Shown here piece by piece: positions 1 to 34,123 of a stretch of 35,575 nucleotides of DNA. The stretch lies in the IMG/VR virus record IMGVR_UViG_2579779007_000007, one strand, 5' to 3'. This DNA comes from a virus (lineage: Duplodnaviria; Heunggongvirae; Uroviricota; Caudoviricetes). Within the stretch, counting starts at the first letter, position 1, and the number at the start of each line of letters is the position of its first letter. The translations under genes were made by a program, and so were the position numbers. The notes beneath the pieces were generated by a model. The model made no database searches. It was not told the DNA's origin and worked only from the letters and a program-made list of their open reading frames with translations.

Positions 1-21
1 ATGCGAGAGACAGTCGAAATT

Positions 22-351
22 ATGCGTTATCCCGTCACTCTTACACCCGCGCCGGAAGGCGGTTATATGGTTTCTTTTGTGGATATCCCTGAAGCGTTGA
101 CCCAGGGCGAAACTGTCGCTGAAGCGATGGAAGCGGCAAAAGATGCTTTACTGACCGCATTTGATTTTTATTTTGAAGATAACGAGCTTATCCCGTTACC
201 TTCGCCATTAAATAGTCATGATCACTTTATTGAAGTACCTTTGAGCGTCGCCTCTAAGGTATTGCTGTTAAATGCTTTTTTACAGTCAGAAATCACTCAG
301 CAAGAGTTAGCCAGGCGAATTGGCAACCCGAATGTAGTCAACCCAAAATAA
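22..351 (+). CDS. hicB: HicB-family antitoxin, N-terminal domain only; ORF ends after 8 unrelated codons, apparently disrupted by the AT-rich element
   Basis: Translation MRYPVTLTPAPEGGYMVSFVDIPEALTQGETVAEAMEAAKDALL... matches the enterobacterial HicB N-domain as recalled. Start of an Xre-like HTH (ITQQELARRIG) is cut off near nt 331. GC drops from about 50% to about 35% after nt 340. Confidence 0.6.
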   Translation: MRYPVTLTPAPEGGYMVSFVDIPEALTQGETVAEAMEAAKDALLTAFDFYFEDNELIPLPSPLNSHDHFIEVPLSVASKVLLLNAFLQSEITQQELARRIGNPNVVNPK

Positions 352-8492: not shown

Positions 8493-10400
8493 ATGAAACT
8501 GATTTCTAATAAGGCAAAATTAAAAAAGATTCTCAGAAATGCAGCCAAATATATTACGCCACCGCCTAAACTCCTTCCATCGGAATGGTGCGAAGCGAAT
8601 CTAACGCTAGTCGATGGTCCTCGTGCTGGGGATAAAGTTAAATTGCTGTCATTTCAGAAAGGCATGATTGATGCTCCTTTCCTTGAGAAGAAAAAGAAGT
8701 ACGTTTTTTGTACGAGTGCGCAGATCGGAAAGACGACCATCATGTCAGGGATCATGTTTAACCAGATGGCAAACGATCCGTGTAATATCATTATCGGGCA
8801 AAGTACCGCTAAAGAAGTGGCTATGTACTTGAATACTAAGATCCGTCCTTCTATTGAAGCATGTCCGGCATTACAGGAAGTGGTAACAGATAAGAATGAT
8901 CGTAATGCGGTAAACAACAATAACCAGATTCAGCTAAAAACAAACCATTTCCTTTACATGGTTTCTTTGACCAGTCCTTCAAGTTTGCGCGGGCGTACTG
9001 CCAAGTTAGGGATTGTAGACGAATGCGACGCAGCAACAATCACCGAAGAAGGTTGCCCGGTGGCACTAACTGCAAACCGTTTAACTACCTTTGGTGATGA
9101 AGCTCGATTGATTGTTTCTAGTACCCCGACCAATAAGCTGGGAATCATTAACCAGCAATGGTTATCAAGTGATATGCGTATGTTTTTTGTTCCGTGTCCT
9201 CATTGCGGGGAACACCAGGTGATCGAGTGGGAAAACGTTCAATTTGAATGGCGTAACATTGATGGTAAGAACTTACCCGATCCTGATACCGCTCGTTATA
9301 TTTGCCCCCACTGTAAGAACGCATGGACAGAAGGGGAACGAATCAGGGCAGTAGCGCAAGGCGAGTGGAGAGCAACCCGTGAAAGTGAAGTAGCAGGATT
9401 CTGGATCAGTCGTCTGTATTCACCTTTCAGCACGATCCGCGCTTGTGTGGTTGATTTTAGTCATGCGTGGCAATCCTTTGATTTACAATCCTTTTTTAAC
9501 ACCGTGTTAGGCAAGGTATACGACGATCAGGACACGGCAGTAGAAGCAAATGAACTGGAACAACTCAAAACAGATGTTTCTATCGAGAATATCCCTGATG
9601 ACGTGATTTTCTTGTGTGCGGGTACTGACCAGCAATTAGATCGCGCAGAAACTACGATCATGGGCGTGGCAAAGGATAAGATTTATATTCTGGATCACCG
9701 CAGCTTTTACGATCATAACTGTGAACGATATGAATCACCTGTATGGGATAGATTAATCAACTTCCATAAAACCAAATTTACTACTGTATCGGGTGATCGT
9801 GTTCCTATGCTCGCCAGCTTCCTTGATACATCGAACGGTCGATTCACTCAAGCTGGATACCGTATTTGCGGCAAGTGGAAGAACTTACACGCTATCAAAG
9901 GTAGTTCTGCTGGTAACGCTCCGATCATTCCGGTTAAACCTACCCGCACAGGTGGTCATGAATTGCTTATGCTGGGCGTTAACGTTGGGAAATCCGCTGT
10001 TCGTGAAATGCTGGTTAGAAACCTGAAAGATAATCCTCATATTGGCTTAGAAATATCAGAAACCATTCCTGATGATTATCTCGATCAGCTTTTGAGTGAA
10101 TCCATCAAGCGTACTACTACTGGCGTGCGTTGGGTGAAAAATCCAGGTAGTACCCGAAACGAGGCTCTCGACTGTCTGGTTTATAGCTATGCTGCTTCTC
10201 GCTACGTTCTTTCAAAAATGTCATGGGATAAACTCATTGCAATGAAAGACAGCTTAAACCGTGTTGTCGAAGAATCCGTAGAAGCTCCTAAATCGCAATC
10301 TGACGAGCAAATCGAAGAAAATAAGCCAATCACACGACCACAACGTAAAAACATCGCCAGACGCCCAAATAGAGGCCGTAGCTGGGTAACATCGTTCTAA
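8493..10400 (+). CDS. terL: terminase large subunit, lambda gpA family
   Basis: 635 aa. Recalled gpA-family blocks: [45 protein letters not shown]. Confidence 0.9.
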
Positions 10401-16364: not shown

Positions 16365-19300
16365 ATGCAATCAATCCAATTTAAACGCACACAAACGGCT
16401 GGTAAAAAGCCGACGCCGGAACAATTATCACAGGGTGAGATCGCCTTACAACTGGCGGACCATGTGATTTACACCAAAGACAAAAATAATAACGTAGTCC
16501 AAATTAGTGTTTCTCCAGAAAAACACGCTGAACTTAACACTAAAGTAGACAATAACAAAACTAGCACTGACCGTGTTATTGCTTCCAACAAACAAGAGGC
16601 CGCTAATAATCTGGCTAGTGCTAAAGCTGAACTGAATCAGACTATTACCACGAAAGATACAGCGACCAATAAGCGCATTGATGCTACCAACACCACTGTT
16701 AGTAACTTAACCCAGACAGTTACGGCAAATAAAACCGATGCCGACACTAAGATCAATAACCTTACGGGGACCGTATCTGCGAATAAGACCGCAATTGAAA
16801 GAACCGTTGCCGCAAACAAATCTGATGCAGATAGCAAACATGCAGCTTTAACGAAAACGGTCACTGACAATAACACCGCGATTAACAACAAGGTTAATAC
16901 CACTAACACCAACGTTAGCAACTTAACTAAAACTGTTACTGCAAATAAAACCGATGCAGATAACAAAATTTCTAGCTTAACTAGCGCGGTTGCAGCTAAC
17001 AAGACAGCGATCGAAAAGACTGTTTCCGACAATAAGAAAGACGCGGATACTAAGATTACCAATCTTACTGGCACTGTTAATAGCAACCATACCGCAATTA
17101 ACAACAAGGTAGACCAGAATAAATCTTCTACTGATGCCGCAATTGCAGCCGCTAACAAACGAATTGATGGTATTGAAGGTAGCAATGATGCTCTTTACAT
17201 CAAGAAGAATACCAATACTAAGCATGGTGGGTATCTGTTAAGCAAGACAGCTAACTATCTGGAAGACCAGACATCACGAGATCTTAACTACTTTGGTGCT
17301 TTCCGTACCAATGGTCAAGATGGACTCATGGATCTAACTCTTAACGTTCCTCACTCTTCCGGTAAAGCGCACGGTCGCGGATTTACTTTCCGTTATGCGT
17401 CTGGTGGATCTCGTGTTGAAACCTATGGTTTTGATAGAGAAGGACAGAAGAACTTTAGCTATAAGATGTATCACGAAGGTGATAAACCGACTCCTGCTGA
17501 AATTGGCGCATATACCAAAGGCGAAATTGATAAGATGTTTATTAAAAATGTCACAATGTCTGTTCCTTCTGGTAGTGAATCCCGTGCTTATTTCAAGATT
17601 GCTACGGCTACGATCCCACAAAATGGTCGTATGGTAATGCTTCGTATCTTCGGTGGTAATGGTTATAACGTTAACTCCTATGATCAGGTTGATTTCCTTG
17701 AAATTGTTATCCGTAGTGGTAACGATAGACCTAAAGGTGTTAGTGTTGCTGCATATCGTCGAAATGCTCTTAACGTTCATCAAGTATTTGCGGTTAATAC
17801 TTCCGGTGATAACTACGACATTTACGTTAACTACGGTCGTTATACTGATAACGTTATTGTCGAATATGGTAAGACTAGCGGTGTTTCACTGACTGTTCAT
17901 GACACCCCAGATATGACTAACGTTAAGCCGTCTACTGGTGTTACAGATGGACGTGTTATTACAATGTTCAATACCGAAAACAAGGCCGGAACGTTGATGT
18001 TTGATAATAACGGTCAGGGAACATATGATATTGTCAGTTTGAATAACGATTCAGGTACTGGTAAAAAATATCTGCGTAAATTCCGTAGTAAAGCCGCAGA
18101 AACAATCTGGCATGAAACTGTTCAAGGTAACGTATATCGTTTAGCGACTGGCACTACCGATTCTAGCGAAGTTCTACGAATCACTGGTCGCACTATGTAT
18201 ACTGGTAAAGCTGTTTTTGATGCCGGATCTAATACTATTCGTATGCAGCGACCGAATGGTCAAAGTAACTATTTGGAATATTGGGATAACCGTAACGGTG
18301 CAAATAAACGTCAAGGTTGGATCGGTTATGGAAATGCCGATACTAACGCTATGCAGATGTATAACGATAGCGGTACTAACAATATTGGCTTAGAACAAAG
18401 CGGTCAAATCTCTCTGAATACTGGATCTACTAAAGTAGTTTATACCAACGGCGAGTATGTATCTGCTAACTCAAATGCATTCCGTATGATTTACGGTAAC
18501 TATGGTGCATTCTGGCGTAATGATGGTCAAAACGTATATTTTCTGTCTACTGCCGAAAATGATAAATTTGGTGGTTGGAACGGCTATCGTCCATTCATTT
18601 ACAATCTGGGTAGCGGTAATGTTACTTTGGGTGGTGATGGTAACGAAGGTGCATTAGTCTTAGAACGTGCAAGTCGTGCAGCTCGTTTTGCTGGAAACGC
18701 TTTCATCAAAGGTCAACATTTAACACTTGATGCTGGTGCTGGACAATCCCGCGACTATTTCCGTTTTAACCATTGGGGTGATAGCAATAACGCTCGCGAC
18801 AACATTCTATATCTCGAAGACAGCAAAGGACGCCATTTCAGCACCGAACGTAATATGGCTACAGGTGCATTAAAAGCATACTTCTTAGGAGATCTTGAAG
18901 TTGCTGGTCAAATGCGATGGGGTAAGAATACCGGACAATCTAGCTTCAATATTCGTGCATGGGGTAATGATACTCGTAAACAAGTATTAGAATGCGCAGA
19001 TGAAAGCGGCTGGCATTTCTACACACAGCGTGCTGGCGGTCCTGATACTACCGCAATCGAGTTTAGCGTAAACGGTAAAATTAACGCTCCCCGACTGTCT
19101 ATTAGTCAGGATGCAACCATTCCTAAGTTTAATAGCGGTTTTGGTGTTGGTGTTGCTAACGGATTGGGTGGAAATTCTATTGTTTTAGGCGATAGTGATA
19201 CTGGATTTAAACAAAACGGTGATGGTGTCCTTGATACCTACGCTAATAACGTTAATGTTGTTCGCCATACGTCAGGCGGTGTTACATTTAACCGTCGTGT

Positions 19301-19973
19301 TGTTGTTGCTAACAAAAATGGTTTAGGTTATTCCGATATCTCTGATGTAACTCGTGACCGTGCTCCATTCCTGGTTAACATGGATAGTATTAAGGGGTCT
19401 GCTGCATATTTCCCGATCATCGCTGGTTACAGTAACTTAGGTGATGTTGGTTATCGTCAGTCCTTCGAGTTTGGTTGGACGGGTAGCGGGTCGAATAGCA
19501 CATGGCGTACTGGTATTATCCGTATGCGTGGCGATAACGCCAACGGGCAGCAAGCACGCTGGGAATTTACTATGGATGGTGATTTTACCTGCCCCCGTAA
19601 CGGTAGCTTTAACGATGTTTACATTCGCTCTGACTCCCGTTTGAAGATTAACAAGGAAGAATTACAGGACGGCGCATTAGAGAAAGTAAACTCCCTGAAA
19701 GTCTACACCTACGATAAAGTTAAATCTCTTTCAGATGACACAGTGGTTAAACGCGAAGTAGGTATTATTGCTCAGGATCTGGAAGAAGTGTTGCCGGAAG
19801 CAGTAGGTATTCAATCCACCGAAGATCCAGAACAACCGGAAGCAATTAAGACTATTTCTAACTCTGCTGTTAATGCCTTGATTATTAAAGCGATTCAGGA
19901 AATGGACGCCAAATATCAAGCTAAGATTGAAGCATTGACTAAAGAGATTGCCGAACTCAAAGCAACTAAATAA
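16365..19973 (+). CDS. long tail fibre with C-terminal S74 intramolecular-chaperone domain
   Basis: 1202 aa. Repetitive shaft, KPTPAEIGAY motif, C-terminal YIRSDSRLKINKEEL... matching the autoproteolytic chaperone domain of T5 pb1 and endosialidase-type fibres. Confidence 0.85.
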   Translation: MQSIQFKRTQTAGKKPTPEQLSQGEIALQLADHVIYTKDKNNNVVQISVSPEKHAELNTKVDNNKTSTDRVIASNKQEAANNLASAKAELNQTITTKDTATNKRIDATNTTVSNLTQTVTANKTDADTKINNLTGTVSANKTAIERTVAANKSDADSKHAALTKTVTDNNTAINNKVNTTNTNVSNLTKTVTANKTDADNKISSLTSAVAANKTAIEKTVSDNKKDADTKITNLTGTVNSNHTAINNKVDQNKSSTDAAIAAANKRIDGIEGSNDALYIKKNTNTKHGGYLLSKTANYLEDQTSRDLNYFGAFRTNGQDGLMDLTLNVPHSSGKAHGRGFTFRYASGGSRVETYGFDREGQKNFSYKMYHEGDKPTPAEIGAYTKGEIDKMFIKNVTMSVPSGSESRAYFKIATATIPQNGRMVMLRIFGGNGYNVNSYDQVDFLEIVIRSGNDRPKGVSVAAYRRNALNVHQVFAVNTSGDNYDIYVNYGRYTDNVIVEYGKTSGVSLTVHDTPDMTNVKPSTGVTDGRVITMFNTENKAGTLMFDNNGQGTYDIVSLNNDSGTGKKYLRKFRSKAAETIWHETVQGNVYRLATGTTDSSEVLRITGRTMYTGKAVFDAGSNTIRMQRPNGQSNYLEYWDNRNGANKRQGWIGYGNADTNAMQMYNDSGTNNIGLEQSGQISLNTGSTKVVYTNGEYVSANSNAFRMIYGNYGAFWRNDGQNVYFLSTAENDKFGGWNGYRPFIYNLGSGNVTLGGDGNEGALVLERASRAARFAGNAFIKGQHLTLDAGAGQSRDYFRFNHWGDSNNARDNILYLEDSKGRHFSTERNMATGALKAYFLGDLEVAGQMRWGKNTGQSSFNIRAWGNDTRKQVLECADESGWHFYTQRAGGPDTTAIEFSVNGKINAPRLSISQDATIPKFNSGFGVGVANGLGGNSIVLGDSDTGFKQNGDGVLDTYANNVNVVRHTSGGVTFNRRVVVANKNGLGYSDISDVTRDRAPFLVNMDSIKGSAAYFPIIAGYSNLGDVGYRQSFEFGWTGSGSNSTWRTGIIRMRGDNANGQQARWEFTMDGDFTCPRNGSFNDVYIRSDSRLKINKEELQDGALEKVNSLKVYTYDKVKSLSDDTVVKREVGIIAQDLEEVLPEAVGIQSTEDPEQPEAIKTISNSAVNALIIKAIQEMDAKYQAKIEALTKEIAELKATK
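16640..17170 (+). repeat. intragenic tandem repeats encoding two ~69-aa shaft repeats
   Basis: Repeated NLT.TVTANKTDAD.KI..LT..V.ANKTAIE.TV. The low-complexity repeats create the spurious antisense ORF 16637..17185. Confidence 0.6.
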
Positions 19974-20674: not shown

Positions 20675-21181
20675 ATGGCAAATGTCGTTAAAGTTCCTGG
20701 CTGGATCGGGTCATCTGCTGTATCGGTGACGGGTAAGCGATGGATGAAAGAAGCACTAACAGCTTTAAAAGTTCCGGCTCCGCGTAATATGTCGGCAATG
20801 GCTGGTCGTGGTATGGATACGGTTGTAGCTACTGCTGCATGGTCTACTTCATTGGGTAATAACTGGGGGGTAACTGCTTCAAACTATCCTGTTTCCGGTA
20901 TGCAAAGCAAAGGATCTATGGAGAACCCCGAAAACGTGGGCGTAGGGCGTCTGATTGGCGTTATCGTTGGTCAATTCAATGGCGGTACTCCTACTATGGC
21001 TGTATATCTCCAGAACGGTAGAGCGGGGAATATAACCGTTAATTTGGGTGGTGCTACTGTCACTGTTCCTTATAACAGTATGCAAAGTGGTTTTCATTAC
21101 TATTGGTTAAGCAATCCTCCGGCTGCTTTCCTCAATAACATTAAGAAGACTGGCACTAAGCAGACTTTGAAAATCTCTTAA
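20675..21181 (+). CDS. hypothetical tail-associated protein (168 aa)
   Basis: ORF with RBS GGAG, located between tail tube and chaperone genes. Confidence 0.5.
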   Translation: MANVVKVPGWIGSSAVSVTGKRWMKEALTALKVPAPRNMSAMAGRGMDTVVATAAWSTSLGNNWGVTASNYPVSGMQSKGSMENPENVGVGRLIGVIVGQFNGGTPTMAVYLQNGRAGNITVNLGGATVTVPYNSMQSGFHYYWLSNPPAAFLNNIKKTGTKQTLKIS

Positions 21182-29000: not shown

Positions 29001-29854
29001 AAATTGCTGTAGCTCCGCAGAACGGGACCGATGTTTGCCCGTTTGGTATCGAAGGTAACAAGGTTTATCTCGATAATGCGATGATTCGTAATGCTGCAAT
29101 TGGCACAGCCCAGATTAATGATGCGGCAATTACTACCGCTAAGATCGGCAATGCTGCAATTAACAGCGCGAAGATTCAGGACGGGGCGATCACCAATGCG
29201 AAGATCGTAAACGGTGCTATTGATAACGCCAAAATTGGTAACTATATCCAGTCTTCCAACTGGAACGGATCAACCGGATGGCATATCAACAAGAACGGGT
29301 CCGCTACGTTCATGAACGCTACCGTTAAAGGTAATATCACGGCTGATTCTGGTACTCTGAACAACGTCACGATTAACTCTAGCTGTGTTATTAAGGGTAT
29401 GCTTGAAGCTACTCAGGTTAAGGGTGATTTCGTTAAGGTGATTGGTCGTAAGTTCCCACACCGTGATGTTAACGTTGATAATGGTTATGGCGGCTATCCG
29501 CAAGGTACAGTAACCGTTCGCGTTGAAGATGATCACAAGTTCGATCGTCAAATCGTTATTCCGGCGATTAGTTTTGGTGGATTGCGAGCGCGTGAAGGGT
29601 CGAACAATAATACCTATTACGACACCTGTCGCCTGATTGTTCGTAAGAATGGGTCAGAGTTGTATAATAGGGCGTATGGCGGTAATACTGGTCTTTACTC
29701 AGGTGTTATTGATATGCCAGCGGGTAAAGGTGCTGTGACCTTGACCTTTGAAGTGCAATCAAGCGCAATCAACAACTGGACGCCTAGCACATGGATCAGT
29801 GATTTAACTGTAATGGTAACTAAAAAAGCCACTACGGGTATTACTGTTTCTTAA
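26078..29854 (+). CDS. central tail fibre / host specificity protein: gpI C-domain-like N-terminus fused to gpJ-like body
   Basis: 1258 aa. N-terminal Gly/Ala-rich hydrophobic segment plus PVLFGTTRTG resembles the lambda gpI C-terminal half. FN3-like repeats. C-terminal DDHKFDRQIVIPA...VIDMPAGKGAVTLTF...VMVTKKATTGITVS resembles the lambda J receptor-binding domain. Confidence 0.85.
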   Translation: MGFEILVGAVIAGASAGMAAAATFSVMTAVAIGMAAGAMTLIASTVGAPKTPKVQSPDNAVTLGTSNDPKTVLPVLFGTTRTGAICVYKAISKQENNKLVQIFAIAEGEIDHYKALFIDNKNVLVGKNMTIRDGILDKGNIKEEYRKVLEVEFRTGKNPNTALSLAKRHLGSDWNDNYKGNGIATMCIVLRRDDKSLAAGVDILQPNSQVAVDVCGLKIRNLETNAIEASTNGVDQIFHYLTNTKYGLSVPIENINVDSFLKVRKQVRQMDLHSNGACDPNASFKENLTSLMQTFGGVMFESFGRITLKLDAPDIVKHTFNEDNIMMGKVSLKTGGTNGYFNTINAMYQEPSIDYSEQMLRYPADAENDATIRQDGRIIAKDIEYRFVKSKAQIDKLASIERNKSRITQVISFMTTDAFTAEVWDVISVTYDELKLNNSLWRITAIDRSIDSGIAGMMTITATEYNSQVYTDLNYAANPDNRPSGLPDSMTVQKPTNFRIKATGETIYGKNVTLTWDAPEDFNRYGFQIDYRVSGSPNWIKLGQTSQQIFSVNALAKDRSYDYRVCAFGIIARSDWVELVNQNPTVTYELPTPVIRIKNQGSTPGTFEGNDLIIEWENQQQLDVEINGETNKFSDLFEAYIIKVTNKAGKSIQYRTRDPESWTYTLDMNQFNGLSRQLTVEVSAKGYNNSESAPARLVAINPQHKPMKGFSARGGFNTAFVSWADDVEHDYAGSIIQYATDNTFSDARAVSTNSVSHTSFDIADGDYYIRGAHYDIFGMDDAVWSEPYFMQMKSTISWDDQDKEALEDLIGLQDRLDETIADAIKQAGANADAKIDAMHKQITTETGKTVQASADTLKSLIASGDKASSTKIDQVKAELKGDITKEVSASATTLKQAIATSEAASASKIDQVRVEMDGKIAGVNQEADVKIDALKGTINSKYNLAVNADGRVAGIHMSATNDPAQPTKIIFTADKIAVAPQNGTDVCPFGIEGNKVYLDNAMIRNAAIGTAQINDAAITTAKIGNAAINSAKIQDGAITNAKIVNGAIDNAKIGNYIQSSNWNGSTGWHINKNGSATFMNATVKGNITADSGTLNNVTINSSCVIKGMLEATQVKGDFVKVIGRKFPHRDVNVDNGYGGYPQGTVTVRVEDDHKFDRQIVIPAISFGGLRAREGSNNNTYYDTCRLIVRKNGSELYNRAYGGNTGLYSGVIDMPAGKGAVTLTFEVQSSAINNWTPSTWISDLTVMVTKKATTGITVS

Positions 29855-29873
29855 AAATTTAATTTTAATAATT

Positions 29874-29916
29874 AATCCCGCTTAATTCTTTTGAGTTAGG
29901 CGGGATTATTTTTATC
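29874..29916 (+). terminator. strong intrinsic terminator after the J-like gene
   Basis: Roughly 15-bp stem (AATCCCGCTTAATTC...GAGTTAGGCGGGATT) followed by TATTTTTAT. Confidence 0.65.
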
Positions 29917-29958
29917 TAAATAATTCTGCCATTAAATTATAAAAATATCGGGGGCGTA

Positions 29959-30237
29959 ATGACTGAAATTATATATGGCGGTATCGGTGTTATCGCCTTA
30001 ATTTGCGGTGGTCTTTGGAGACTTCACCGAAATCAATTAGCAACTGAAAATAGATTGTCGAAATTGGAATCCAGCGACGCATTGTTAAACCAGAAGTTTG
30101 AGACGATGCAGAATAACCATACTCAGATTGCTGAACGTGTTTACCAAATGGAACAAACACTACACGGTATAGAGAAGAAAGTGGTTGCGATGGACGCCAA
30201 ATTTGACCAAGTTCTCGACATACTCAAACAAAAATAA
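29959..30237 (+). CDS. membrane protein with N-terminal TM helix and coiled coil (holin- or i-spanin-like)
   Basis: 92 aa: IIYGGIGVIALICGGLW followed by a heptad-rich region. RBS GGGGG. Confidence 0.5.
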   Translation: MTEIIYGGIGVIALICGGLWRLHRNQLATENRLSKLESSDALLNQKFETMQNNHTQIAERVYQMEQTLHGIEKKVVAMDAKFDQVLDILKQK

Positions 30238-30255
30238 TAATAAAGGGGTGAATAT

Positions 30256-30426
30256 ATGAAGAATAAACTTAAGAAATATTTTGGTTATCTCTTGATTGTC
30301 GCCCTCACTTATAACGTAGCTATTAGACCTCTGCTAACGTCCTTTGGGCTTGAACTCCCGGCTATGACCGTGGATGAACAATTGCTAAGGACACTGGCGG
30401 GGGTCTTTTCGTTATTAGGGGGCTAA
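30256..30426 (+). CDS. small membrane protein (56 aa), holin-like candidate
   Basis: Manual translation MKNKLKKYFGYLLIVALTYNVAIRPLL... RBS AGGGGTG. Stop is 1 nt before the next start. Confidence 0.4.
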   Translation: MKNKLKKYFGYLLIVALTYNVAIRPLLTSFGLELPAMTVDEQLLRTLAGVFSLLGG

Positions 30427-30427
30427 C

Positions 30428-31111
30428 ATGGCAACCAGTACCAATAAACGAAACGCTCTAAGGACTAAGAAAGCGTTACGGCAATGGTCTGAAAAGGCAA
30501 CCGATACATTCGAAAAGGCACTAGGGGAAGGGGCGATCTTTGCTTCCAGAGCACTCCAGAAGAAGATTAACAAGAATGTTGATAGACCTACTCGATGGAC
30601 TCAGCAAGCTGTAGGTAATACCAACTACAAGAACCGATCAGGGACGAGACACCAAATCTTCATCAAGGGCGCAAGGGATAAGGACAAGAAGATCGGCAGT
30701 CAGGATGACTATCTGAAACACTATTTCGATGGGGGAAAAATCAATAAGCTAGTTCCAATCGCCAACGGTAAGGTCTTAGACGCCCACGGGAACATTAAGG
30801 CCATCAAAGGCGGTAAGATGATGCGTAACATCGAAAACGGCAACTTCATCAAGGTAGAGAACAAGGAAGGGACTTTTATCATGAAGAAGTACAAGCCTAA
30901 GAAATCCCGAACCAAACGCGCTAAGAATGGATCGGCGGTGGCAAAACGTCGCTTAGAGAAACGCATACAGAAACAGAGTAAGCGAATCGTTGCCGTTAAA
31001 TCGGATAAAATTTCTACTCGTTATTCGACGCTAGGATCGTGGGAAAGCAACGAGGAAATGATGCTTAAGAACATTAATAAGCACATTAAATCGCGCATGA
31101 GATACGTTTAA
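30428..31111 (+). CDS. hypothetical highly basic protein (227 aa)
   Basis: Very K/R-rich ORF with no family recognised, placed among the lysis genes. Confidence 0.6.
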   Translation: MATSTNKRNALRTKKALRQWSEKATDTFEKALGEGAIFASRALQKKINKNVDRPTRWTQQAVGNTNYKNRSGTRHQIFIKGARDKDKKIGSQDDYLKHYFDGGKINKLVPIANGKVLDAHGNIKAIKGGKMMRNIENGNFIKVENKEGTFIMKKYKPKKSRTKRAKNGSAVAKRRLEKRIQKQSKRIVAVKSDKISTRYSTLGSWESNEEMMLKNINKHIKSRMRYV

Positions 31112-31149
31112 TCCATAAATACCCTCATAGAATCTTATGGGGGTATAAC

Positions 31150-31497
31150 ATGGCTAAAAATATTTTCACTGAATTTCCTACTTATCCGGTCGATCAGCTT
31201 TCCGGTATTTTTATTAATGGCATTAGTCCAGAATCAATGACTTATGATTTTGAGGCGAAGAGAGTTAAACATAAACAATATAAAGAATGTATCCGTGACC
31301 ATGAAAAGGGGACCGTGTTTTGTGTCGCTACATTGGCTAAACGTCCTAAGTATCGTTTTCGTGTCGGGCAAGAAGTCGATGTAGTTAATCCTTATAGCTT
31401 TAATTGTCTGGGCGATGCACGCGCGGTGTGTGTAGGTACTGCTCCTTATTATATCAAGGGTATGCGCTTTATTGGTTATATCTTCGAAATGATCTAA
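31150..31497 (+). CDS. hypothetical protein (115 aa)
   Basis: ORF with RBS GGGGGTATAA. Confidence 0.55.
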   Translation: MAKNIFTEFPTYPVDQLSGIFINGISPESMTYDFEAKRVKHKQYKECIRDHEKGTVFCVATLAKRPKYRFRVGQEVDVVNPYSFNCLGDARAVCVGTAPYYIKGMRFIGYIFEMI

Positions 31498-31506
31498 GGG
31501 GGTAAT

Positions 31507-31860
31507 ATGTTAAGCAAACATTTTTCTCGCAAGGAATTTAAATGTAAATGCGGAAAATGTGATTATGATACAATCGACGCTGAATTACTGGTAATTCTTG
31601 AGGATGTACGAGAGCACTTCGGTAAACCAGTGATTATTAACAGTGGCAACCGTTGCCCGACTCATAACAAGAATGTAGGCGGGGCAGCCAATAGCTATCA
31701 CGTTCGAGGCCGTGCGGCTGACATTGTTATCAAGGGTGTCTCACCTGATATTGTTCATGCTTATCTTGATGGGAAATATCCTACTCAATACGGCTTAGGA
31801 AAATATAAAACATTTACGCATATCGATTCCAGATCAAAAAAATCACGGTGGAATGGATAA
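31507..31860 (+). CDS. peptidase M15-family peptidoglycan peptidase (putative endolysin)
   Basis: 117 aa. SYHVRGRAADI and a downstream His match the M15 zinc-peptidase H..G.A.D pattern, the class that includes T5-type endolysins. Confidence 0.65.
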   Translation: MLSKHFSRKEFKCKCGKCDYDTIDAELLVILEDVREHFGKPVIINSGNRCPTHNKNVGGAANSYHVRGRAADIVIKGVSPDIVHAYLDGKYPTQYGLGKYKTFTHIDSRSKKSRWNG

Positions 31861-31864
31861 AACA

Positions 31865-31892
31865 AAAGCGCCTCTGGTGGGCGCTTTTTTGT
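31865..31892 (+). terminator. intrinsic terminator after the endolysin
   Basis: AAAGCGCC-tctggtg-GGCGCTTT followed by TTTTTT. Confidence 0.65.
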
Positions 31893-32071
31893 TAGAATAT
31901 GCTGGCGACGTTAGCTATATTTCTGACCATTTTTTCATTATAGACAAATATACCGCAGACGATAAAGTCGTTTTTGACGAAGTAGATCCGTCTCTGGTTG
32001 AAGTAATGAAAGAACCGGAAGACCTAGAGCTTGATTTAAGCCAATTATAGACTCTCTAACGCAATTAAATT

Positions 32072-32100
32072 AAAAAGGGGTACGGATGTACCCCTTAAAG
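32072..32100. terminator. bidirectional hairpin between convergent transcription units
   Basis: AAAAA-GGGGTAC-ggat-GTACCCC-TTAAAG. Confidence 0.45.
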
Positions 32101-32132
32101 CGTTTGGTTCGTTATACGGCGATTTAGGCCGC

Positions 32133-32390
32133 CTATGATTTATTTTCTTGTTCTATGAAAATCTTTCTCACCTCATCAGAATAAATGTCTAGTGATTCCT
32201 CATAACATTTTCTGTATTCATCGTAATTACTGGTGGTCTTTTGACATAGCAATTTCAATGTCTTATGTGCTCCATCAATGAAAGCATCTTCTCTATAGGT
32301 TAGCGGTCTACGCATTTCTTGGTCTACGGTTGCCAATGCCAAGCAAGAATTCATAGATAAAATCAAACCTAAAATCTTAATCATCTTCAT
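32133..32390 (-). CDS. small secreted protein (signal peptide, about 85 aa)
   Basis: MKMIKILGLILSMNSCLALA-TVDQ... Begins 4 nt after the recombinase stop on the same strand. The ORF-track start at 32405 is a TTG. Confidence 0.5.
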   Translation of the reverse strand: MKMIKILGLILSMNSCLALATVDQEMRRPLTYREDAFIDGAHKTLKLLCQKTTSNYDEYRKCYEESLDIYSDEVRKIFIEQENKS

Positions 32391-32394
32391 TAGC

Positions 32395-34074
32395 TTAAAT
32401 TCCAAATTCTTGTAATGGACCTGGTATTTCTTCTTCTGGTTTCCAGTTCTTATCTGTCAGCATGTCTAAACATGGATGCAGAACAAGCCCGTTACTCTCC
32501 AGAATCTGCCTATCATTGATAGTCTTCAAATCAACGAAGATCCGGCCTTTCCTCGGTCCTCTTGAATTTTCTATTACAACTCTCTGGGTCTTGCCATCGA
32601 TGTATTCCAGTACAAACAAGTTTTTGTACTTGTCAATCCTGCTACACCCGATCCGTTTTAGAGCTTGCTTAATCTTAAACCGGACCTTAATGCGATCCTC
32701 GTTGTAAACATCTTCTAAATCAAATTCTGCGAGCTTCTCCCAGCCTTGAGAGTCAACAGAATACATTTCCTCTTCTGCCATCTTAAGTTGATTGTAGAGT
32801 GTTTCACGCTCGCTATTGAGGGTAGTAATCTGATCGGCTAGCTCCTTCGTTGCTCCTGTCATAGCAGAAAGGGTAATCAGGTTATCAATCTTGCGTGATA
32901 TTTCATCAATCTGTACTTTCAAAGCCGGAACCGGATTAGCCTTATCTTCAGCAATCCAGATTTTATCAGCCAGCAATTGCAATACAGCTTTCTCTAATTG
33001 GTCGCCGCGAAAACTCCAGTTTGTATGCACACATTCAATACGACTAGAGCGCATTGCATCGCATGAATAACGATATTGGTTAGGCCGTCTGTTTGTTCCT
33101 TTCACCTTAACCATAGCGGAACCGCAATGTTCACATTTCAATAGACCAACACCACTAAGCAAGGGAATAGGTTTAGCTTCTTCTTTGTCTCCAAAGTTAC
33201 ATGCTCTAACACCAATGCTTTTCTTAAGGTGATAAAACTCAGCGTCATCTAGCACACGAGGATAATAATCCTTTAACTCATACTTAACGCCATCTACAGA
33301 GATTTCCTTGATACCAATCAAAGCGCGGGTATGGAACAACCTTTCAATCATTGCCCGTGACCAGTTTGAATGCCTCTTGTGACTTGCGGCTGGTGGTGGT
33401 GTGTATGTCGCGTTAAGGTGATCCAGTATCTCGGCGGTTGACCGTCCATTCCTGCGTAATTCCACAACTTCCTGAACAATAGGGAAGAAGACCGGATGAG
33501 GAAGCACATAACCAGATGTGGTATCAGTCCACCACATATTCTTTCCAATTTCCTCGATTGCAACAGCCGGATTTTGTGGATTTTCTTGATGAGCTTTAAT
33601 CTTAATCAGTGCGCTTGAGTTAGTACGATTGCGCTTAGTCTGGCTTTCCTCATTACCACGGATGAATAAAAGGATGGAGAACATCAGGTCCATCGGGTTA
33701 GCGGTAACAGTATCAAGCGAGTAGATCTTGTTATCCATGCCAGTAACAATGGTTATCCCCCTACGGATGATTGAAAGGAATAACTCCTGCGCACTGACAA
33801 TATCGGCACGGGATAAACGGTCCAAGTTTTCGATGAATAGCCAGCTACCAACAGGAACGGATCTACCTATTGCATCAAGGAAACGAGATAGCGCCCCTGT
33901 TTTGGAGTTAGCACCCTTAAACGCAGATACACCCAGATCCTGATAATCATTTACCAGTTCAAGGTCATACTTTACCGCAATCTCTCTAGCCATCCTGATT
34001 TGTCGTTCATAACTCGAACCATCATTCTGACGCATAGACGAGAAGCGAATATACGAATACAGTTTAGTTTTCAT
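32395..34074 (-). CDS. large serine recombinase (candidate integrase)
   Basis: About 560 aa. N-terminal resolvase-type motif YIRFSSMRQ, recombinase domain, zinc-ribbon cysteines (CEHCGSAM...YRYSC), C-terminal coiled coil. ATG start at 34074; the ORF track uses a TTG at 34089. Confidence 0.85.
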   Translation of the reverse strand: MKTKLYSYIRFSSMRQNDGSSYERQIRMAREIAVKYDLELVNDYQDLGVSAFKGANSKTGALSRFLDAIGRSVPVGSWLFIENLDRLSRADIVSAQELFLSIIRRGITIVTGMDNKIYSLDTVTANPMDLMFSILLFIRGNEESQTKRNRTNSSALIKIKAHQENPQNPAVAIEEIGKNMWWTDTTSGYVLPHPVFFPIVQEVVELRRNGRSTAEILDHLNATYTPPPAASHKRHSNWSRAMIERLFHTRALIGIKEISVDGVKYELKDYYPRVLDDAEFYHLKKSIGVRACNFGDKEEAKPIPLLSGVGLLKCEHCGSAMVKVKGTNRRPNQYRYSCDAMRSSRIECVHTNWSFRGDQLEKAVLQLLADKIWIAEDKANPVPALKVQIDEISRKIDNLITLSAMTGATKELADQITTLNSERETLYNQLKMAEEEMYSVDSQGWEKLAEFDLEDVYNEDRIKVRFKIKQALKRIGCSRIDKYKNLFVLEYIDGKTQRVVIENSRGPRKGRIFVDLKTINDRQILESNGLVLHPCLDMLTDKNWKPEEEIPGPLQEFGI

Positions 34075-34081
34075 ACCATTT

Positions 34082-34123
34082 CCAAACAAAAACGCCCCTA
34101 CCGCGTATTATAACGATAGGGGC
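34082..34123 (-). terminator. minus-strand terminator upstream of the recombinase
   Basis: On the minus strand: GCCCCTATCG-loop-CGGTAGGGGC followed by GUUUUUGUUUGG. The loop contains TATAAT. Confidence 0.4.

Follow-up and report, generated by a model that had tools for sequence, protein, structure and literature searches.

In a prophage of Escherichia coli (IMG/VR record IMGVR_UViG_2579779007_000007; the whole stretch of 35,575 nucleotides is hereafter called the window), five tightly packed plus-strand genes at positions 29959-31860, designated A, B, C, D, and E, form what is, by a modest balance of probability, a holin/endolysin lysis operon that lacks spanins and carries two embedded late genes, C and D, with no part in lysis. 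New here are a terminator-bracketed A-B-C-D module with exchangeable endolysins, the pairing of a releasin-like protein with soluble endolysins, and the two embedded genes. All positions are window coordinates, and related prophages and phages are referred to by locus labels (L004, L006, etc.). A first-pass annotation made from the letters alone had recognised an M15 peptidase, two small membrane proteins, and a basic protein in this region; it placed these ORFs correctly, and the most informative features of the locus escaped it: gene D, the terminators on either side, and the exchange of one endolysin for another between relatives.

By sequence, E is the endolysin of the phage and a predicted zinc peptidase of family M15, as the first-pass annotation had proposed. 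The protein matched Pfam Peptidase_M15_3 (PF08291) over the complete profile (positions 1-108 of 108; E-value 8.8e-28, 97 bits vs. a cut-off of 23.2) and the PHROG endolysin family phrog_894 (1.7e-45), and tblastn found relatives in 762 phage records, the best of which were 60-64% identical over the full length and annotated as endolysins in SP6-like Autographiviridae, among them Proteus, Klebsiella, Citrobacter, Pectobacterium, and Salmonella phages. Residues 63-72 (SYHVRGRAAD) align with NSRHMYGHAAD of 1LBU, the Zn D-Ala-D-Ala carboxypeptidase of Streptomyces albus (MEROPS M15A), over the metal-binding motif SxHxxGxAxD, and a second histidine, read from the sequence, lies within THID at residues 104-107. 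E has no signal, signal-arrest-release (SAR) segment, or hydrophobic N-terminus, its maximum hydrophobicity window being 0.9. The M15 endolysins of SP6-like phages (Proteus PM85/PM93/Pm5460, Klebsiella K1-type, UAB_Phi78) are likewise single-domain proteins of about 117 residues that have the SxHxxGxAxD and C-terminal His motifs in common with E and also lack an export signal; a small M15 peptidase is an ordinary endolysin type and not an unusual one. In Proteus phage PM93, the one SP6-like relative that was read, the endolysin gene is followed by genes for small membrane proteins and for a lipobox o-spanin, whereas E is the last gene of its operon with nothing spanin-like after it. Canonical holin and spanin genes elsewhere, with the ORFs of this region dispensable for lysis, would, according to the first-pass annotation, have overturned its reading of the region; PHROG scans of the 20 other open reading frames (ORFs) tested recognised no further endolysin, holin, or spanin in the window, and the unit is the sole recognisable lysis locus of the phage.

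Each of the five genes is preceded by a GGGG(G) ribosome-binding site. The ratio of nonsynonymous to synonymous substitution rates (dN/dS) against relatives was 0.06-0.21 for A-E wherever dS was measurable, that is, not saturated, and they are therefore real genes under purifying selection. The stop codon of B and the start codon of C are 1 nt apart, and in other clades the B/C, C/D, and D/E pairs overlap, B and C doing so in L016 and L018. The hairpin and U run between J and A are kept at the same place in L004, L006, L007, L008, L013, and L015, with paired changes on both arms that preserve the pairing, and different hairpins occupy this position in L016 and L011. For the second terminator, immediately after E, the scan had listed the minus strand; comparison with relatives shows a plus-strand hairpin and U run, and an equivalent hairpin stands directly 3' of the endolysin gene in L004, L006, L007, L008, L016, and L018. 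A-E is a separate late transcription unit bracketed by two conserved terminators.

Close homologues of C and D were found in one prophage clade of E. coli, Salmonella, and Providencia, and an exhaustive profile search with C returned 12 representatives only. At every one of these loci, a J-type tail-tip gene is followed by A-B-C-D-endolysin and then by the end of the late region. The endolysin is a Peptidase_M15_4 protein in L016 and a GH24 lysozyme in L018, with A, B, C, and D retained; both loci have extra tail-type genes between J and A, and the A-B-C-D-endolysin block is contiguous. Escherichia phage DCP80 (L011) has the same four genes, broken by an endonuclease VII gene and a reverse gene, together with an endolysin of the T4-lysozyme type. 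The endolysins of these relatives have no N-terminal hydrophobic segment. Because the gene order is kept while the endolysin family changes, A-D constitute a conserved block joined to interchangeable soluble endolysins. Searches of Pfam, NCBIfam, and PHROGs with A-D gave weak or composition-driven matches only, and when A, C, D, and the whole region were compared as DNA and protein with 50,697 phage records, only E was matched.

The first-pass annotation had reported no o-spanin lipoprotein and had called for a lipobox search of all frames, embedded ones included. That search was run and found none: there was no credible lipoprotein signal in the six frames of 29800-32450, no credible lipobox ORF in the whole window, where the few pattern matches lay within large genes on the antisense strand or had a mere 6 residues following the Cys, and none in the cassettes of nine relatives (ten cassettes in all). 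The o-spanins of Proteus phage PM93 and Mu (gp23.1), included as positive controls, were picked up by this screen. With respect to unimolecular spanins of the T1 gp11 type, no ORF of the window joins an N-terminal lipoprotein signal to a C-terminal transmembrane segment. The phage encodes no spanin of either kind. A minority of phages is known to share this state, reportedly about 15% of those with Gram-negative hosts (bioRxiv 10.1101/515445), and while the features on which the first-pass annotation based the word "atypical" are present, the word itself is too strong for a locus with an ordinary M15 endolysin and a spanin-less state known from other phages. On the minus strand, an unannotated ORF of 90 residues (ORF G, 32133-32405) shares 11 nt with the stop end of the integrase gene and encodes a signal peptide (…LSMNSCLALA, followed by TV) and four further Cys, with no family match. 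As a lipoprotein (..LSMNSC..) it was rejected: a signal peptidase I site between ALA and TV fits better, and the ORF lies on the integrase strand and outside the operon. It may be a secreted accessory protein.

The endolysins of this group being soluble, a hole-forming holin is required, and the candidates within the unit are A and B, both of which are small membrane proteins with at least one transmembrane segment encoded beside the endolysin, as is looked for in holins. A has an N-terminal transmembrane segment at about residues 4-22 (Kyte-Doolittle 2.0 over 4-20), followed by a coiled-coil tail of about 70 residues for which only generic coiled-coil families were matched. An acidic MTE stands before the transmembrane segment and WRLHRNQ after it, and homologues in all four clades have an acidic or neutral N-terminus and basic residues after the segment. 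By the positive-inside rule, this charge distribution predicts an N-out/C-in topology with a cytoplasmic coiled coil, so that of the description of A as holin- or i-spanin-like in the first-pass annotation the architecture stands and the i-spanin is unlikely. Close homologues of A are confined to this prophage clade, and diverged ones in L016, L018, and L011 align with it. The homologue in L018 matched phrog_1296, which is labelled "holin" (2e-7), as well as phrog_736, to which Mu gp25 belongs (7.4e-4), and has a "faint" precomputed match to PF10805; with hhalign, the A family gave a weak match to Mu gp25 (P 0.019) that is in register over the juxtamembrane motif GG.W...R....ER...LE. A search of viral contigs for DUF2730 returned 17 loci, all 94-100% identical to Mu. 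The A proteins also match many unrelated coiled-coil families, and composition therefore contributes to these matches. We consider A a candidate holin or releasin-like holin accessory.

B, the 56-residue membrane peptide that had been noticed upstream of the endolysin, has a basic N-terminus with four K in its first seven residues, one weak transmembrane segment, and a short hydrophobic C-terminus, for a net charge of about +3. Its transmembrane segment carries the motif [YW]N..[AV]..P, which is conserved across all four clades, and within the clade B is the best conserved gene of the unit (69-84% identity; dN/dS 0.11-0.21). In three clades it weakly matched phrog_2024, a family with no assigned function (0.0054, 1.1e-6, and 4e-4). 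On these features, B is a candidate holin or antiholin.

One parallel in form to A is the releasin gp25 of Mu, the prototype of DUF2730, a protein of 99 residues with N-out/C-in topology and a cytoplasmic domain of 73 residues, whose known function is the release of a SAR endolysin (PMC9239132). A, in its predicted topology, is of similar size, with 3-4 periplasmic residues, an N-terminal transmembrane segment, and a cytoplasmic domain of about 70 residues, and its gene lies within five genes of the endolysin, as that of the releasin does. Unlike the SAR endolysin released by Mu gp25, E is soluble. DUF2730 proteins are also paired with cytoplasmic endolysins, and among the phages surveyed they were found in transposable Mu-like phages only (PMC9239132). 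A second parallel is given by Lcc6 of the Shewanella phage LambdaSo, which consists of a transmembrane segment and 43 cytoplasmic residues and is essential for lysis with the holin, showing that lysis can depend on small bitopic membrane proteins other than holin, endolysin, and spanin; its gene lies apart from the lysis genes, and its partners are a pinholin and a SAR endolysin (bioRxiv 10.1101/2024.01.23.576932). The placement of A and B beside an endolysin matches the arrangement of Lcc6 and of PBSX, with no sequence similarity to either. In the XhlA/XhlB/XlyA system of Bacillus PBSX, lysis likewise depends on a small bitopic membrane protein that has a cytoplasmic tail and works alongside the holin; the transmembrane segment of XhlA is at its C-terminus.

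C is a strong polycation, with an isoelectric point of 10.7, a net charge of +38 (57 K+R vs. 19 D+E), and no transmembrane segment. The extremely basic 227-residue protein that the first-pass annotation placed inside the cassette is thus real, and it is not an orphan: it belongs to the phrog_1924 family. The match of C itself to phrog_1924, "minor tail protein", is weak and nearly full length (3.7e-4, positions 29-189 of 237), and seven of nine distant C homologues from phage records also match this family, six of them weakly and the seventh, which resembles gp44 of Rhodobacter phage RcCronus, at 2.4e-33. The C family profile aligned with gp49 of phage R4C at a probability of 96.6% (hhalign, E-value 5.6e-10); R4C gp49 in turn matched phrog_1924 at 2e-48 and phrog_27, "tail completion or Neck1", at 3.6e-5, and protein P0017 matched phrog_27 at 0.0055. 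The conserved part of C is its N-terminal portion of about 115 residues, which is homologous to gp44/gp49 of the Cronusviruses and contains the motifs ..DRPT.FT.. and YL..GGx..P..(Y/H)GN. Overall, C is the fastest evolving gene of the unit (34-75% identity), its AlphaFold model was poor (predicted local distance difference test, pLDDT, 43.5), and a sequence search of the PDB with the C family gave no match, R4C gp49 itself being absent from the PDB. In the Cronusviruses RcCronus and R4C, the gp44/gp49 gene is the last before cos and TerS, and RcCronus has a SAR-type endolysin just beyond the terminase genes. Unlike these genes, C lies between the membrane protein genes and the endolysin, and the enterobacterial proteins have a long K/R-rich insert. 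D, predicted to be a small β-barrel, is confined to this clade. Because C is a member of the gp44/gp49 family (phrog_1924), we argue that it has a role in virion assembly or packaging, and it is probably an assembly or packaging protein rather than a lysis effector.

In the mechanism that we propose, E, as a soluble M15 zinc peptidase, would build up in the cytoplasm, and A and/or B would make the inner membrane permeable at a set time, so that E could gain access to the murein and cut the peptide part of the peptidoglycan; the outer membrane would be breached by means other than a spanin. C and D would be late assembly or packaging proteins that share the operon and are co-transcribed and translationally coupled with the lysis genes.

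A number of observations weigh against this interpretation. The A protein of the window itself has only weak, composition-prone matches (phrog_12015, 4e-5; the Rz-like phrog_739, 0.036) and none to DUF2730 or phrog_736 at E≤0.1 in Pfam and PHROG, and B is without annotated relatives. The real holin could be encoded elsewhere. Downstream of the TerS-like gene there are two unannotated small hydrophobic ORFs on the plus strand (2306-2479 and 2533-2706), the second of which encodes an extremely hydrophobic, holin-like protein of 57 residues with about two transmembrane domains, a C-terminal KKDTK, and a good ribosome-binding site (AGAGGA). Both are kept in E. coli PEC41, the second is kept in a 90%-identical relative, and in ETEC1717 a 94-residue protein with three transmembrane domains replaces them; either the product of 2533-2706 or this 94-residue protein could be that holin. 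With regard to C and D, the C family owes its name "minor tail protein" to annotation alone, and gp49 was not among the 12 structural proteins of the R4C virion as resolved by cryo-electron microscopy (PMC10276861). Two more specific assignments failed with hhalign: C as HK97 gp10 or lambda gpZ (C family, <0.1% probability) and D as a tail terminator (no similarity to HK97 gp11 or R4C gp18). The matches of R4C gp49 and P0017 to phrog_27 are the sole, indirect links of C to the Neck1 proteins. Finally, the coupling of C and D to B and E and their retention when the endolysin is swapped are also predicted by a role in lysis.

We think it unlikely that A-D are tail or neck accessory and assembly genes, with E merely an adjacent endolysin and the holin elsewhere, for example among the ORFs at 2306-2706. 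The unit does follow J directly, the C family has its minor tail label and is remotely Neck1-like, tube, neck, and hub proteins are frequent among the weak fold matches of D, a tail terminator gene is located downstream of the tail-tip genes in the R4C lineage (PMC10276861), and the holin-like ORF at 2533-2706 and the three-domain protein of ETEC1717 could supply the holin. The conserved terminator between J and A argues otherwise, as do the tail-type genes that are inserted between J and A in L016 and L018 while A-B-C-D-endolysin remains contiguous. Moreover, two small membrane proteins have no evident virion role in such a block, and a diverged A homologue has a match to a holin PHROG (2e-7). 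Close relatives differ in what they carry at 2306-2706, as is usual for moron genes, and this suggests that the slot holds an accessory gene.

A different proposal, which we regard as rather improbable, is that A-D make up a modular, spanin-independent lysis machinery with a plug-in soluble endolysin, C, perhaps with D, carrying out the outer-membrane step. A precedent is the disruptin gp28 of phage phiKT, an LL-37-like protein of 56 residues with a net charge of +7, which is made in the cytoplasm and replaces spanins (bioRxiv 10.1101/515445). Like phiKT, the prophage has a Gram-negative host, no gene for a spanin lipoprotein, and a cationic protein without a signal in its lysis cassette. Once the holin had opened the inner membrane and E had removed the murein, C might bind the anionic inner face or lipopolysaccharide of the outer membrane and destabilise it as a large analogue of gp28, to which we attach a slim chance; or the predicted β-barrel D and the polycationic C of 180-240 residues might together perform the outer-membrane or another lysis step, for which the prospects are comparably poor. 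The lack of a spanin in the window and in nine related cassettes, the net charge of +38 on a protein without a transmembrane segment, the tight spacing of B and C here and their overlap in L016 and L018, the persistence of A-D as the endolysin family changes, and the conserved terminator that sets the unit apart from the tail genes are all in keeping with such a machinery. However, C is four times the size of gp28, is not predicted to be an amphipathic helical peptide (model pLDDT 43.5), evolves faster than any other gene of the unit, and is remotely similar to neck proteins, and the N-terminal 115 residues are common to Cronusvirus gp44/gp49, whose genes adjoin TerS and not a lysis cassette. 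The description of gp28 sets it apart from C, with its 227 residues, its net charge, and its homologues outside lysis cassettes. For a disruptin, a cationic, amphipathic-helical protein of fewer than about 80 residues that complements a spanin defect is expected, and C by its length and B by its net charge of about +3 fall outside this range.

Very improbable indeed is a reading of A as the i-spanin of a degenerate or unconventional spanin, or of one with an unrecognised non-lipoprotein partner in the outer membrane (B or D), because, although A joins a transmembrane segment to a coiled coil as i-spanins do and, like its homologues, weakly matches the Rz-like spanin family phrog_739 (window 0.036, L018 1.3e-4, L011 1e-3), such coiled-coil matches are composition-prone, the charge distribution predicts a cytoplasmic coiled coil in all four clades, no lipobox partner, embedded or separate, exists in any frame, and the 70-residue tail is short for an Rz protein.

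The features of the region are collected in Table 1.

Table 1. Genes, terminators, and other features of the lysis region and its right-hand flank, in window coordinates.
Feature	Position	Strand	Description
Intrinsic terminator	29873-29908	+	16-bp stem and U run, from the terminator scan; between J (stop 29854) and A
CTAAATAAT motif	29916-29924	+	43 nt upstream of A; possible late-promoter element
Gene A	29959-30237	+	92 residues; bitopic membrane protein
Gene B	30256-30426	+	56-residue membrane peptide
Gene C	30428-31111	+	227-residue polycationic soluble protein
Gene D	31150-31497	+	115-residue soluble protein
Gene E	31507-31860	+	117-residue Peptidase_M15_3 endolysin
ORF F	31853-32050	+	65 residues, acidic; RefSeq-annotated; weak ribosome-binding site; doubtful as a gene
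Intrinsic terminator	31864-31888	+	Right after E (AAAAGCGCC..GGCGCTTTT then TTTGTT); usable on both strands
Integrase	32395-34089	opposite to A-E	Large serine recombinase, 564 residues

No sigma-70-like promoter for the unit was found upstream of A. The motif CTAAATAAT is a possible late-promoter element, which we offer as a weak lead. The sequence [CT]TAAATA stands upstream of the A homologue in nine of ten related loci, and of the CTAAATA copies in the window 10 of 11 are on the plus strand, including those at 2287, 10431, 12433, 16296, 19966, 21185, and 29916. Six or seven copies lie 20-105 nt upstream of late genes, two of them just after a terminator hairpin; the total is not enriched over shuffles (11 observed vs. 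7.75 expected). The CTAAATA motif resembles the late promoter of T4, whose consensus is TATAAATA, and an exact TATAAATA was found upstream of gene A in the Providencia relative. At the other end of the unit, ORF F is doubtful as a gene and not part of the unit, because the second terminator falls inside it and relatives lack it.

The window is a complete E. coli prophage of 35.6 kb with a G+C content of about 41%. E. coli H2 and CE0007a carry the region of the five-gene unit in their chromosomes with 100% identity, and among 5,426 complete E. coli genomes 56 have it. The insertion in strain H2 is within hicB, of which window positions 1-351 are the 5' part and the 3' part lies beyond the right end. 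This gene, the antitoxin of the hicAB toxin-antitoxin pair, is split by the prophage (window 1-351 and the right end; L001 25813-25932), and hicA is intact beside the left end. From left to right, the late genes encode a lambda-A-type large terminase, a head-tail joining protein, the portal, and a capsid protein of 670 residues, then neck and tail proteins, the tape measure, and a J-type tail-tip protein of 1,258 residues, followed by A-E. The unit is placed between the tail-tip gene J and the serine integrase, and a position between tail tip and integrase is the usual layout in temperate Gram-positive siphophages. The isolated phages closest to the prophage, judged by tblastn of its capsid protein, were Escherichia phage DCP80 at 43% identity and RcCronus, vB_DshS-R4C, and phiHAP-1/VP882 at about 30%; capsid, portal, and terminase are of the same type as those of the Cronusviruses.

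Other genes of the prophage and its relatives deserve mention. A TerS-like gene (1722-2276; phrog_57, 1.5e-11) is some 6 kb away from that of the large terminase (8493-10400), separated from it by genes on both strands, including a Rha/Ant-like regulator, and no relatives of its product were found in species-representative genomes. The 8-kb early region contains nothing recognisable as a repressor or replication gene. A secreted protein of 259 residues encoded at 584-1363 on the minus strand carries the PGAP label lysozyme inhibitor LprI family (phrog_14799, 8.5e-114) and is possibly an accessory (moron) gene product, in a phage whose endolysin is a peptidase and not a lysozyme. The fibre gene of 1,202 codons (16365-19973) shares 73-84% DNA identity over about 1-2 kb with gp37, the distal long-tail-fibre gene of RB49-type T-even phages, and downstream of it a 168-residue protein (20675-21181) is a gp38-like tail-fibre adhesin (phrog_1121, 2.9e-35). 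The prophage is a lambda-J-type siphophage, and it looks as if receptor-binding modules were recently exchanged between a temperate siphophage and virulent T4-like myophages. In relatives, UvsW helicase and UvsY, T4-type recombination genes, come directly after the lysis operon, and one relative clade has a T4_Cef-like gene in its tail region (coordinates for these genes: L004 11643-13448, L006 11946-13883, L008 10739-12244, L018 400-573); the window is without any of them. The DCP80 record (PQ671644.1; L011 1925-9539) is 141 kb long and filed under Straboviridae/Gaprivervirus, and in it the capsid, the J-type tail tip, A-B-C-D, and the TerS-like gene stand beside T4-type genes (endonuclease VII, motA), so that the record represents a chimeric assembly or else a genuine mosaic.

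If C and D are assembly proteins, the locus amounts simply to an ordinary lysis operon without spanins in which the genes are unusually ordered. The pairing of a releasin-like protein with a soluble endolysin is a combination that has been noted for DUF2730 proteins, and for the passage through the outer membrane by the roughly 15% of phages of Gram-negative hosts reported to have no spanins, a single disruptin has been described. On both points, the prophages of E. coli, Salmonella, and Providencia provide a compact, terminator-bracketed unit of five genes, suited to cloning in one piece and to analysis with the standard lambda Rz/Rz1 complementation assay.

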